A DNA stretch of 64,000 nt from Octopus vulgaris (Eukaryota), in assembly GCA_951406725.2 (NCBI GenBank), contig OX597823.1, positions 104,470,001 to 104,534,000 of the forward strand, given 5' to 3'. Below the pieces are notes generated by a model, which saw nothing but the letters and a program-made list of their open reading frames with translations, was not told the origin of the DNA and did no database searches. This document shows, piece after piece, positions 2,090 to 44,753 of this stretch. The position numbers and the translations under genes are program-made. How positions within the stretch are numbered: position 1 is the stretch's first letter; each line of letters starts with the position of its first letter.

Positions 2090-2297
2090 GAGATGTATTT
2101 GCATAGCGAGTGACTTGATCTGAGATCGTGTGCTGGAACGAAAACAATTGCAGCATGGAAAGTGTTTATAAGCCATTTAAGAAACACACAAAAATTGCTA
2201 GATTCACTTCAACATTTAGATTTAATTTGTCAAAATATTTTCGTCGCTTTGAGACGGTGACCTGTTCACTGACAAAACTTCGTGATGCAGCACGAAG
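2090..2297 (-). mobile_element. Single-arm copy of the same Penelope-like repeat, with hammerhead-like motif at 2226-2276
   Basis: Clear similarity to 3309-3505; ends at the short palindrome CTTCGTGATGCAGCACGAAG. Confidence 0.6.
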
Positions 2298-3445
2298 ATT
2301 GTTATTTCATTAAATATCTCTCAATTATTGAGTGTTTTAAAATATAGCTATGGTCAAAGATCATCATCATTATTTAATGTCAGTTATCCAATGCTGGCAT
2401 GAGTTGGATGGTTTGACTGGAGCTGGTAAGGCCAGGGGCCACATCAGGCTCCATTGTCTGTTCTGGCATGGTCGGATGCCCTTCCTAAGACCAACCATTC
2501 CACAGAGTGTACTGGATGCTCTTTATGTGGCACCAGCACTGGTATCAATTCTGCTGTGGTGGACGAGTCTTCTTGAGTACAGCCAAATTTGTTATGCCAT
2601 CAAAAACTTCATTCTCGGCATGGTACAGCTCTCCATGGTAAATATTTACCACAGTATTTACACGTAGCTCAAACGTACTTTTGATCTCTTTATAGTTCTT
2701 CATTTTGACAATTAACAAAGTTAGTTCTGGGAAGGAAGGATGCATGTATGACACAATGGAATTCAGTCTACTATTGGTAGTTATTTGGTTGCAGTAAAAT
2801 ATCATTATCATCATCATCATCGTTTAACGTCCGTTTTCCATGCTAGCATGGATTGGACGATTTGGACTGAGGGCTGGCGAACCAGATGGCTGCACCAGGC
2901 CCCAACCATGATCTAGCAGAGTTTCTACAGCTGGATGCCCTTCCTAACGCCAACCACTCTGAGAGTAAGCGGCTATGTAACTCCCTGACAATAGGGACCT
3001 GCTTTGCTTCACCTACTTCTCTTATACCCTAACCCATATCTGCATCCCTCACTTCATATCTCTCTCACCCCCACCCGGTTCTGTGGACTTGTAAGCTGCA
3101 TAGCAACTTCACTAGTGCTAGTGGCACGAGAAAAAAACCCTGTAGGCACTGTAAAATGGTTGGGATTAGGAAGGCCACCCAGTCATATAAACCATATGTA
3201 GTCCTTGGATCCACCAGATCCTGTCAAACTGTCCAAACCATGCTAGCATGGAACATGAACATTAAATGATGATGATGTGTGTGTGTGTGTGTATATATAT
3301 ATATTACAGAGATGTACTCGCATAGCAAGTGATTTGATCTGAGATCGTGTGCTGAAACGAAAACAATTGCAGCGTGGAAGGTGTTTGTAAGCCATTGAAG
3401 AAACACACAAAAAGACGTTCGATTCACTTCAACATTTAAGTTTAA

Positions 3446-3495
3446 TTTGTCAAAATATTTTCGTCGCTAAAATCTGCGACCTGTTCACTGACAAA
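3446..3495 (-). ncRNA. Minimal type-I hammerhead-like ribozyme, G3-C8 core variant
   Basis: TTTGTCA GTGAACA G GTCGC-AGATTTTA-GCGAC GAAA ATAT TT/ TGACAAA: 7 bp stem I, 5 bp stem II, palindromic loop III. Confidence 0.6.
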
Positions 3496-3515
3496 AATCC
3501 GTGCTGCATCGGATT

Positions 3516-3565
3516 TTTGTCAGTGAACAGGTTGTGGATTTTAGCGACGAAAATATTTTGACAAA
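3516..3565 (+). ncRNA. Mirror copy of the G3-C8 hammerhead-like motif
   Basis: TTTGTCA GTGAACA G GTTGT-GGATTTTA-GCGAC GAAA ATAT TT/ TGACAAA; stem II kept through two G-U pairs. Confidence 0.55.
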
Positions 3566-3650
3566 TTAAACTTAAATGTTGAAGTGAATCGAACGTCTTT
3601 TTGTGTGTTTCTTCAATGGCTTACAAACACCTTCCACGCTGCAATTGTTT

Positions 3651-41630: not shown

Positions 41631-42529
41631 TTGAATTTTGAATATTGATAAAATAATCCTACTCAAAGCAAGATTGAAGAAGCACCAATCACATTATCAA
41701 GCATGACTGGTTGAACATACTGGCAATGGCAATACTTACTGGTGGTAGTCATGGTGGGGTCATGTGGTAAGAGGCATCACTTCATGCGTTTTGGGTCTTC
41801 CAGTTAGCAAAGAAAAAAAATGCAAACATAATAAATATGTAATTAATGCTATATTTAATAAATCATAATAAAAGCTTTATTCCTACATTTTCACTTTCCC
41901 CTTAGGCTGGTCATGTTATCAGGTATTATAAGTGATAAGGGAGGAGGGAAAAAAAAAAGAAGCATTCTCATCTACTAGAAGTATGTACTCTGTGGAATTT
42001 CTAGCATTGAATCAATACTCTACTGAGCCGAACTAGATTGGTACCCATGGGAAGTTGTAAGTTCCTAGCCAACTAAGTGCAACACTTAGTTGATAAGTAT
42101 TTCACTTAATCTCATTTCAAACGAAGAGTACATGTTTAATTTGCTTTTTACATGTAATACTCACATACACACACAAACACACACACACACACACACACAT
42201 ATATTGAACTGTACTCATGTAAATAATAATAATTTTCCAAATTTTGGCACAAGGTTAAAATTAGGATGAGGGAGTTTTTTACTGTATTGACCTCAGCACT
42301 TGACTGGTACTTTATCAATCCTTGAAAGAATGAAAAGTAAATTTGACCTTGGCAGGATTCAAACTTTGTTTCAGGGTATTTGCCCTTTATCAATGCAGAA
42401 TAGCCAAACTCATATATATATATATATACACACACAGCCAGACCTATTCTCCATTTCTTTTAGAAGTGGGTAGCCACAACAAAACACACTGACCATTCCA
42501 TTCATTTCCCAGTTTAAAGGGGTGAACCC

Positions 42530-43610
42530 CGTTCTATGCTGAGGTCAAGGCATAGAACACAACCCCCAATATCAGCAGCAGGGCCTGACAGCATATCCTG
42601 GTTTACCCCTGCTGCATCATGCTGCTTCCATACCCCTTTGAGCAACATCAAATTCACTCATCCATCCACAAATACTCTCCAAGCTTTCCTATCATTTATA
42701 AACTCTCTTGCCTCTCTCACTCCATCACCTCTAACCACCAAAGCTTTCCTCATTCCATCCATCCACACAAACCGAGGTCTGTCTCTGGTTCTGCTTCCTA
42801 CCACTTCTGCCTTCATCACCCTCCTTATCATCTGCTCCTCATCCATCCTTTCCATGTGGCCAAACCACCTTAACATTCATCCATCCAATTTGTTAGTTTT
42901 TCTCTCATTCCTTGATCATCTTCACACCTCACTCCTCCTCCTGTCCATCTGTGTCACACCAGTCATATTCTTCAGACATCTCACCTCAAACGCATCTAGT
43001 AGCCTCCTCTCTACCTCCACATCTCTGCACCAGGTAACATCGTCAGTACAATCACGCCCTCATACACACCTTTTCGCTTTCATACTAAACCTTTTATCTC
43101 TCAGTATACTTTTCACAACTCCAAGTATCTTACTCCCCTCCCTCACTCTGTATCCCAATTCCTCAGCCAACCCCCCCCCATCCGCTGTCACATGTGACCC
43201 CAGATGCTTTAAAAACACTCACCTCCTCTAACATCTCACCATTTATACTCACATCCATCCTACCAGCCATTCTATCTCTCGAACATCTCACCTTACTCTT
43301 AGCTACATTCACTTTCAGTTTCTTCCTCCCACACACTCTTCCAAACTCTACCTCCAGTCTCCTCAGTTGCTCTTCTGAATCCGCCACAAGTGCTGTATCA
43401 TCAGCAAACATCAACTGACTCACCTGCCATTTCTCTCCTTATTTTCTTCCATCATTTGGGCATCCCTACCAAGGGTTCTAGCATTTGCCCCTCTCACCAC
43501 ACCATCCACATATAAATTCAACAGCCACAGAGACACCACACAACCCTGTCTTAACCCCACCTTCACATCAAACCTCTCACTTATTTCACCACCCACCCTT
43601 CATAATACCA
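42530..43610 (-). mobile_element. Decayed RTE-clade LINE of a second, PHD-less lineage
   Basis: [20 protein letters not shown]...KLKVNVAKSKV and LRWFGHMERMDEEQMIRRVMKAEVVGSRTRDRPRFVWMDG, in shifted frames. Confidence 0.82.
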
Positions 43611-43662
43611 ACCACTTTACAGAGTATACTGGGTGCTTTTTATGTGCCATCAGTACCAGTGT

Positions 43663-44526
43663 TTTTATGTGGAACCATATATATATATATATATATATAT
43701 ATATATATATATATATATATATATTTATGTGGAACCATATATATATATATATATATATATATATATATATATTATGTCATATATATATATATATATATAT
43801 ATATATATATATATATTTATGTGGAACCTATATATATATATATATATATATATATATATATTTATGGAATATATATATATATATATATATATATATATAT
43901 ATTTATGTGGAACCATATATATATATATATATATATATATTTATGTGGAACCATATATATATATATATATATATATATATATATTTATGTGGAACCATAT
44001 ATATATATATATATATATATATATATTTATGTGGAACCATATATATATATATATATATATATTTATGTATATATATATATATATATATATATATATATAT
44101 TTATGTGGAACCATATATATATATATATATATATATATATATATATGGAACCATATATATATATATATATATATATATATATTTATGTGGAACCATATAT
44201 ATATATATATATATATATATATTTATGTGGAACCATATATATATATATATATATATATATATATATTTATGTAATATATATATATATATATATATATATA
44301 TATATATATTTATGTGGAACCATATATATATATATATATATATATATATATATATTTATGTGGAACCATATATATATATATATATTATATATATATATAT
44401 ATATTTATGTATATATATATATATATATATTTATGTGGAACCATATATATATTTATGTGGAACCATATATATATATATATATTTATGCGGAACCATATAT
44501 ATATATATATATATATATATATATAT
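43663..44526. repeat. Compound minisatellite [TTTATGTGGAACC(AT)n]
   Basis: About 20 units, some truncated; constant 13-mer with variable-length (AT)n spacers. Confidence 0.92.
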
Positions 44527-44535
44527 AAATGTAAA

Positions 44536-44753
44536 ATGTGACAATTATTCGGTAGCTATGATAAAACTCCGAGTTTTGGATGTCGGGCTGGAAATCCATG
44601 CCACCATCTCTTCAGTTATCCGGCCGTTGGAAAAATGCTATGAAAAATAGCATTTATTCTGATGGCTGAATAACTGAAGAGATGGTGGCATGGGTTTCCA
44701 GCCCGACATCTGAAACTCGGAGTTTTATCATAGCTACCGAATAATTGTCACAT
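44536..44753. mobile_element. Long palindrome (~106 bp arms), Penelope-like inverted termini
   Basis: Arms differ by 8 transitions and 1 indel, loop GAAAA; contains a hammerhead motif; flanked by (TA)n. Confidence 0.65.
44670..44728 (+). ncRNA. Minimal type-I hammerhead ribozyme, canonical core, sense to SNX intron 1
   Basis: ATAA CTGAAGA GATG...CATC T GAAA CTCGGAG TT/ TTAT; the opposite-arm copy has GAAA changed to AAAA. Confidence 0.6.

Follow-up and report, generated by a model that had tools for sequence, protein, structure and literature searches.

Nine hammerhead ribozyme motifs in five families (A to E) lie in a 64,000-nucleotide (nt) stretch of the Octopus vulgaris genome (GenBank assembly GCA_951406725.2, contig OX597823.1, positions 104,470,001 to 104,534,000; the whole stretch is called the window). 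Here we conclude that these motifs are very probably the hammerhead-bearing 3' ends, each made of a pseudo-long terminal repeat (pseudo-LTR) and a tail, of several unrelated families of Penelope-like elements (PLEs), and that they probably sit as inert passengers in the introns of an INIP-like and an SNX30-like gene. The connection with PLEs was observed in families A and E, and for B, C and D it is likely; the copying mechanism set out below, together with a swap of the core pair 3-8 to G3-C8 in family A, belongs to the same reading.

The window is rich in TA, and proteins labelled Octopus match it with 100% identity. It was scanned with a descriptor of the type-I hammerhead carrying a C3-G8 or a G3-C8 core, and 40 local dinucleotide shuffles served as the control. 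The C3-G8 descriptor gave three matches (E1, B2 and C) against a shuffle mean of 0.125 (maximum 1), and the G3-C8 descriptor gave three matches, all copies of family A (A1, A2 and A3), against a mean of 0.025 (maximum 1); the family A copies were recovered only when the core was written as G3-C8. A relaxed scan added D (core at 40206, plus strand) and E2 (core at 44615, minus strand), each with A in place of G12, while B1 (core at 15658, plus strand) is 95% identical to B2 over 80 nt and carries a mismatch in stem I. Self-BLAST found no sequence shared between any of the five families, and the preliminary description, which had proposed about nine motifs in five families without common sequence, all of them intronic, was right on these counts. 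It had also described all motifs as type-I hammerheads with a CUGANGA-like core. When the junction was examined (stems I and II around CUGANGA, GAAA and UH), C, B2 and E1 formed it strictly and A formed it with G3-C8, whereas B carries C4, with a stem II of 2-3 bp only, and D and E2 fail at G12; that description therefore fits B2, C and E1 and does not extend to A, D or E2.

Self-BLAST also revealed inverted arrangements at A2/A3 (290 nt, 97%), at E1/E2 (266 nt, 86%) and within C (47-nt arms), and B1 holds an inverted piece of its own tail; no such arrangement was found for the family D copy in the window. (TA)n arrays border A2/A3, B1, B2, C and E and are absent at A1 and D. The inverted repeats and (TA)n borders proposed earlier were thus largely recovered; the exceptions are the missing (TA)n at A1 and D and the status of B1 and B2, 5.2 kb apart, as two separate insertions.

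The link to PLEs is most direct for family A, of which a first look at the genome gave 1202 candidates and an exact pattern search 5,417 matches (reversed-pattern control, 0). The starting query was a GIY-YIG endonuclease end enclosed by an inverted A pair 2.5 kb apart. Among 30 loci picked by a search with this endonuclease end, the A hammerhead lies 0.9-1.2 kb downstream of the stop of the GIY-YIG open reading frame (ORF), in sense, in 29. Longer copies carry open frames of 839 and 1025 amino acids (aa) with a YVDD motif of the reverse transcriptase (RT) type, a CX3CxxC linker and GIY-YIG. Pfam recognised the GIY-YIG domain (E 1.8e-5), and the homologues of the protein are named RT-domain proteins. 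Since the copies are 94-98% identical at the protein level, family A moved recently. Its linker fits the Nematis-type CX2-5CxxC and is short, as in the Nematis alignment rows; the tree built for the protein holds no named reference. Within the window, tblastn with PLE proteins found no remnant. The tail of A2, from 3395, encodes about 30 residues homologous to the ORF start of the sister PLE described below (alignment score 46; 0 of 2000 shuffles), and this peptide aligns weakly with a relative, L276 (p 0.02).

As a rule, the copies of these families stand head to head in (TA)n, with one arm running to a fixed internal point and the other to the full end. A set of 96 family A copies fell into 48 with the short 3' end, 44 with the tail of about 55-60 nt and 4 others. 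Most short copies begin no more than about 25 nt upstream of the hammerhead. Among A loci picked by pattern and not selected for length, none of 19 reached past that 5' point into shared upstream sequence; six of the 19 are copies of one composite repeat, and the older variant is over-represented in the set. This composite repeat, of some 700 nt or more (L186, L192, L193, L195, L196 and L197), joins a family A palindrome to a family E tail and has itself been multiplied, with 97-98% identity.

For family E (1709 first-look candidates), the hammerhead was present in 29 of 30 loci chosen by the sequence upstream of it, and a Hydra-type endonuclease lies upstream, in sense, in 10 of 30; the part read there is the endonuclease end. 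The CxCX5C linker before GIY-YIG fits the definition of the Hydra clade (PMC8557442). In the stem II extension of family E the copies, which are not independent, show covariation between C-G and U-A (10 C-G, 13 U-A, 5 C-A, 3 U-G and 1 other). All five families have high copy numbers. First-look candidates numbered 692 for B, 1107 for C and 2739 for D, and exact matches 1,551 for B and 473 for C (reversed controls, 0). Family C is young, many of its genomic copies being 100% identical over 118 nt, and several of its matches are inverted pairs 2.5-9 kb apart. B and C have sharp 5' ends in BLAST-picked copies, similar to A; family D forms some inverted pairs genome-wide and is bordered by (AAT)n. 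Inverted 5'-truncated copies with an optional tail in a microsatellite target are shared by A, B, C and E, and head-to-head arms, a fixed truncation point and (TA)n targets make it likely that B, C and D are PLE 3' ends as well. The PLE origin put forward earlier consequently stands for A and E and is likely only for the remaining three families, for which an ORF link was not found. One B copy beside an inverted Hydra-type fragment (L046; 1 of 30 loci) was not counted as a link, and contigs over the family D locus derive from other genomic copies and are uninformative on the window copy.

The core of family A, taken earlier as CUGANGA-like, actually reads GUGAACA, the G3-C8 swap having been overlooked; next come an additional G, a stem II of 5 bp, GAAA, a loop that is palindromic, and UU. 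The nearest relative of family A within the genome is a sister PLE (P0001; 57% protein identity, tree support 100/100; 3,212 exact matches), whose motif has the same architecture and the same extra G with a C3-G8 core, CUGAUGC, and whose stem II differs from that of family A by a compensated G-C to A-U exchange. Among metagenome relatives retaining some 3' flank (L275-L279, L282 and L286), the motif was readable in four of seven: L275 and L276 have C3-G8, and L277 and L278 have U3-A8, with the motifs of L275 and L278 read by eye from the flanks. In every one of the six related elements whose motif could be read, the 3-8 pair is accordingly of the Watson-Crick type (G-C in one, C-G in three, U-A in two). 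Most simply, G3-C8 would have arisen by a double change along the branch that leads to family A. It is a natural compensatory 3-8 swap, predicted to keep partial activity. In thousands of family A copies, neither stem nor any other core position is disrupted. Subfamily variants occur at 0 of 31 columns of core, stem I and loop III and at 4 of 8 columns of loop II (p 0.0009).

Position 9 is normally an invariant A in the hammerhead core. The sister family, with a 1312-aa open frame in L250 (G000:C17:6331579-6336951), has C at this position, as has L277. Just downstream of 4883 in L275, a hammerhead read by eye carries U15.1-A16.1 instead of A-U.

Placement behind PLE ORFs (A and E), 3' ends fixed at two points, inverted arms, insertion in (TA)n and a ribozyme copied whole were all directly observed, and they are consistent with what is described for PLEs, namely pseudo-LTRs, inverted 5'-truncated copies, a tail and (TA)n bias (PMC8557442), and two internal RT starts, a protein-assisted ribozyme and uncut RNA as template (PMC11167929). 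By two-site target-primed reverse transcription on uncut RNA, as suggested by PMC11167929 and PMC8557442, an RT/GIY-YIG protein would nick (TA)n DNA, reverse transcription would begin at either of two sites inside the element RNA, giving the two fixed 3' ends, and a second, inverted copy at the target would produce the palindromes. Because the hammerhead is copied whole, the template is likely uncut RNA. Since most short copies begin so close to the hammerhead, transcription likely starts in the pseudo-LTR about 25 nt upstream of stem I, and we infer that short end-only RNAs may be copied in trans. Loop III is self-complementary in all five families (duplex energies in kcal/mol: A -0.2, B -7.4, C -5.8, D -1.7, E -9.7), and the ribozyme of the source element would cut only as a dimer through this palindromic loop or with the element protein; minimal PLE hammerheads have low, dimer-dependent activity (PMC4209133), and a C3G/G8C double mutant is partly active (PMC11167929, PMC8495972).

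Several observations weigh against this account. For B, C and D, no linked ORF was found in 30 loci each or in the scanned GIY-YIG and Hydra-type loci, and an apparent long C copy (L089) proved to be a chimera with upstream DNA from another element. Pfam RVT_1 had no match to the family A protein at E 0.1. The dimer helix III of family A is barely stable at -0.2 kcal/mol, and that of D is weak too. The conservation of the family A motif is weakly distinguished from its 3' flank (0 of 31 against 9 of 80 columns with variants, p 0.06), and the copies were partly selected by core similarity, which biases any estimate of conservation. The clustered 5' ends fit an RT stop or a short master copy equally well, and the extra G with which short A copies begin, a candidate for a cap-derived base, was not used as evidence, since the inverted arm can often have templated it.

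That the motifs are chance folds in AT-rich repeat DNA is hardly conceivable. In an Rfam search at E<=10 the hammerhead family was absent among the best 150 of 177 matches, which were microsatellite-driven noise of the microRNA type, and the stem II of family B is very short; the shuffle controls, in the window and elsewhere in the genome, the location behind PLE ORFs and the covariation across families all speak against it, and for A, C and E this explanation is refuted. It is unlikely that B, C and D are non-LTR retrozymes or small non-autonomous elements with an RNA-circle cycle of their own. Their missing ORF link, the C4 core variant and GNRA loop II of family B, and the reported derivation of retrozymes from pseudo-LTRs (bioRxiv 10.64898/2026.07.22.740005) would suit such elements, yet tandem arrays were found neither in the window nor in the flanks viewed, and tandem hammerhead units of 150-1000 nt were found neither at 15200-64000 nor around the A copies. 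Moreover, B and C share the two-ended, head-to-head, (TA)n-targeted form of A and E, and some C inverted pairs are spaced as long PLE insertions would be. The motifs are solo or inverted ends, and the retrozyme-like character at first attributed to the population is not supported.

It also seems rather unlikely that family A is a dead hammerhead relic whose G3 and C8 are kept as a promoter or protein-binding sequence in the pseudo-LTR. Ribozyme mutants leave PLE insertion in vitro unimpaired (PMC11167929), the loop III dimer has almost no stability, and the 5' ends of short copies cluster just upstream in a promoter-like manner; against this, both 3-8 partners changed together and pair in 6 of 6 readable related elements, the rest of the core and the stems persist in thousands of copies, and a PLE hammerhead that carries the C3G/G8C double change is still partly active (PMC11167929). 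It is nearly as likely as not that family A is an active, natural G3-C8 hammerhead of a recently mobile PLE lineage, whose relatives would show that the 3-8 pair, and even position 9, are exchangeable in protein-assisted PLE ribozymes; a pseudo-LTR-only RNA of about 215 nt might then be copied in trans as a unit resembling a short interspersed nuclear element. If so, this trans-copied RNA, with its start a little upstream of the ribozyme, would account for the large excess of solo hammerheads over coding PLEs.

The earlier proposal that several motifs are sense to host pre-mRNAs was correct, since six of the nine are: A1, A2, C and B2 in INIP introns, and D and E1 in SNX30 intron 1, with A3, B1 and E2 antisense. 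That these sense copies cut or shape INIP or SNX30 pre-mRNA, altering expression through cleavage or through edited double-stranded RNA, is nevertheless very unlikely. Besides the six sense motifs, such an effect is favoured by A1 and A2, which share an intron at a distance of 1.2 kb and might in principle form a dimer, by the long duplexes that the palindromes would form and by the depletion of retrozymes from Xenopus introns (bioRxiv 2026.07.22.740005). However, hairpins of -230 to -280 kcal/mol are predicted to take up A2, A3, E1 and E2 completely; for A1, B1, B2, C and D, no hammerhead fold is predicted within a context of either 60 or 200 nt; a partner in sense orientation is missing from the window for B2 and C; and D and E2 lack G12, the general base, whose loss slows cutting about 10^5 to 10^6-fold (PMC2553840). 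Furthermore, the motif density of the window is close to that of the genome. Because of hairpin burial, the lost G12 and the need for a dimer or protein, host-transcript cleavage is unlikely and most window copies are predicted to be inactive; the folding predictions and core damage thus speak against the action on host transcripts implied at first.

A density sample of 38 ten-kb stretches at round coordinates (380 kb), scanned with a descriptor requiring a Watson-Crick 3-8 pair and A9, gave 21 matches (9 C-G, 4 G-C, 6 U-A and 2 A-U) against 4.2 in shuffles, or about 1 per 22 kb and, by rough extrapolation, some 10^5 genome-wide. An A3-U8 family is not prominent in these 380 kb (2 matches against 1.4 in shuffles). 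Under the same descriptor the window has 5 matches against about 3 expected per 64 kb; the window is typical of this genome and not special, and the dense, diverse ribozyme population proposed earlier is supported, at about one strict motif per 22 kb. Many further hammerhead families were present in the fetched loci, including a U3-A8 family behind 781-aa ORFs. In L241-L244, a young PLE family has many intact 781-aa RT/GIY-YIG frames and an upstream ORF, with U3-A8 hammerheads in both pseudo-LTRs in three of the four loci. The window itself holds a tenth remnant at 42368-42400 (minus strand), antisense within intron 1 of SNX30; it belongs to a sixth family and consists of the 5' portion of a U3-A8 hammerhead, broken off right after GAAA.

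The motifs resemble the minimal hammerheads of metazoan PLEs (Cervera and de la Pena 2014, PMC4209133) in type-I topology, short helix I, palindromic loop III, an extra base after position 9 (here in A and D), thousands of solo copies, sequence-diverse families and opposite-strand pairs 100-700 bp apart. They differ in that the cores described there are C3-G8 and U3-A8, whereas family A has G3-C8 and its sister C9; in supplement file 2 of that paper, GUGA occurs as a core in 0 of 9 occurrences and Octopus is not mentioned. Like the Poseidon element PAc of Anolis (Frangieh et al. 2024, PMC11167929), family A has a hammerhead near the ORF start inside a pseudo-LTR, a tail delimited by two fixed 3' ends, targets rich in AT and a ribozyme copied uncut, and the A2 tail, encoding the ORF start, has the layout described for PAc. 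C3G/G8C was engineered in PAc and is the natural state of the high-copy family A; Poseidon lacks the linker, while the family A endonuclease has CX3CxxC and its tail measures about 55-60 nt. The Nematis/Neptune and Hydra clades (Craig et al. 2021, PMC8557442) share the C-terminal GIY-YIG with a CX2-5CxxC (A) or CxCX5C (E) linker, (TA)n insertion and inverted 5'-truncated copies, A and E being assigned to them by the linker motif alone. The supplement of that paper includes Hydra and Naiad families from Octopus, and its passages describe no core variants. The PLE variants of Lunse, Weinberg and Breaker (RNA Biol 14:1499) likewise have a diminished stem III and cleave as dimers (per PMC6765202). 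Perreault et al. 2011 (PMC3088659) report 3-8 covariation, very short stems II and U15.1-A16.1 (compare L275); the natural covariation there is U3-A8, and G3-C8 was not found in its passages. Metazoan non-LTR retrozymes (bioRxiv 10.64898/2026.07.22.740005) are also type-I, related to pseudo-LTRs and non-autonomous, and differ in forming tandem units each with a hammerhead, whereas the window copies are solo or inverted.

That PLEs leave many solo minimal hammerheads has been known since 2014, and the G3-C8 swap is the only unusual feature among these motifs. A natural G3-C8 core was not found in our literature searches, the coverage of which excluded the alignments of Lunse et al. and most subscription papers; as far as the accessible literature goes, a G3-C8 family with a C3-G8 sister as natural control is new. 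Family A is a natural version of the classic rescue mutant with a built-in control, and, ribozyme mutants still transposing in vitro, the swap allows a direct test of whether PLEs are selected for cleavage. A further implication of the swap is that ribozyme censuses of genomes built on CUGANGA are too low. A recent repeat annotation of O. vulgaris (PMC13282606) does not mention ribozymes in its main text, by term search.

Table 1 Hammerhead-bearing copies and host exons in the window.
Feature	Position	Strand	Remarks
INIP/SOSS-C-like exon	1955..2002	-	phase agrees with that of the last exon, which Pfam matched, 15 kb to the left of the window
A1	2084..2294	-	family A, older loop-II variant; short PLE end-piece with tail; sense to INIP
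A1 hammerhead	2226-2276	-	core G3-C8 at 2269-2263; one mismatch in stem II; cut predicted after 2233
A2 arm, full tail	3303..3505	-	sense to INIP; paired with A3
A2 hammerhead	3446-3495	-	G3-C8 core; predicted cut after 3453
A3 arm	3506..3641	+	stops at the fixed internal 3' end of family A, then (TA)n; antisense to INIP
A3 hammerhead	3516-3565	+	G3-C8
B1	15553..15724	+	inverted tail piece (~15553-15634) and forward arm; antisense to INIP
B1 hammerhead	~15653-15692	+	core C3-C4-G8 at 15658; 2-bp stem II; weakened stem I
C copy	16482..16775	-	full arm on minus strand and, at 16729-16775, a short arm in inverted orientation; flanked left and right by (TA)n; sense to INIP
C hammerhead	16664-16706	-	canonical core
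INIP-like exon	17645..17843	-	recognised by frame and splice signals; itself unmatched in Pfam
B2	20871..20950	-	solo arm with (TA)n on either side; sense to INIP; hammerhead 20904-20941
INIP-like exon	22331..22469	-	recognised by frame and splice signals; itself unmatched in Pfam
SNX30-like first exon	35448..35593	+	coding from 35471; contigs from 3 of 4 runs stop at its donor
D copy	40140..40290	+	old, decayed; sense in SNX30 intron 1
D hammerhead	~40202-40247	+	core at 40206; A at 40234 instead of G12
E palindromic insertion	44528..44835	both strands	between (TA)-rich arrays
E2 hammerhead	~44561-44619	-	A replaces G12; antisense to SNX30
E1 hammerhead	44670-44728	+	sense to SNX30
SNX30-like second coding exon	55905..56096 (approx.)	+	D and E in the intron before it

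The minus-strand gene is INIP-like because its neighbouring exon outside the window, the sole Pfam SOSSC match of the genome (E 3.8e-11), belongs to the same series; the three INIP-like exons in the window have good splice signals and compatible phases, and that at 22331-22469 resembles the N-terminus of INIP. A candidate exon at 32109-32246, for which no real homologue was found, was dropped. The INIP-like (minus) and SNX30-like (plus) genes stand head to head across about 22469-35593; the two are presumably neighbours in human too, which would mean an old microsynteny.

B1 (15645-15724) and B2 (20871-20950) form an 80-nt inverted pair of 95% identity flanking the INIP exon at 17645-17843 and could pair in the pre-mRNA. 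Among 54 window ORFs, Pfam named only a long interspersed nuclear element at 7669-11527 (plus strand), apparently intact, with a 1040-aa endonuclease-RT frame and pieces of a CCCH zinc-finger ORF1, which lies between two multi-kb (TA)n arrays, antisense in an INIP intron. Just past SNX30 exon 2, a 26-nt tandem repeat of 27.5 copies occupies 56158-56873.

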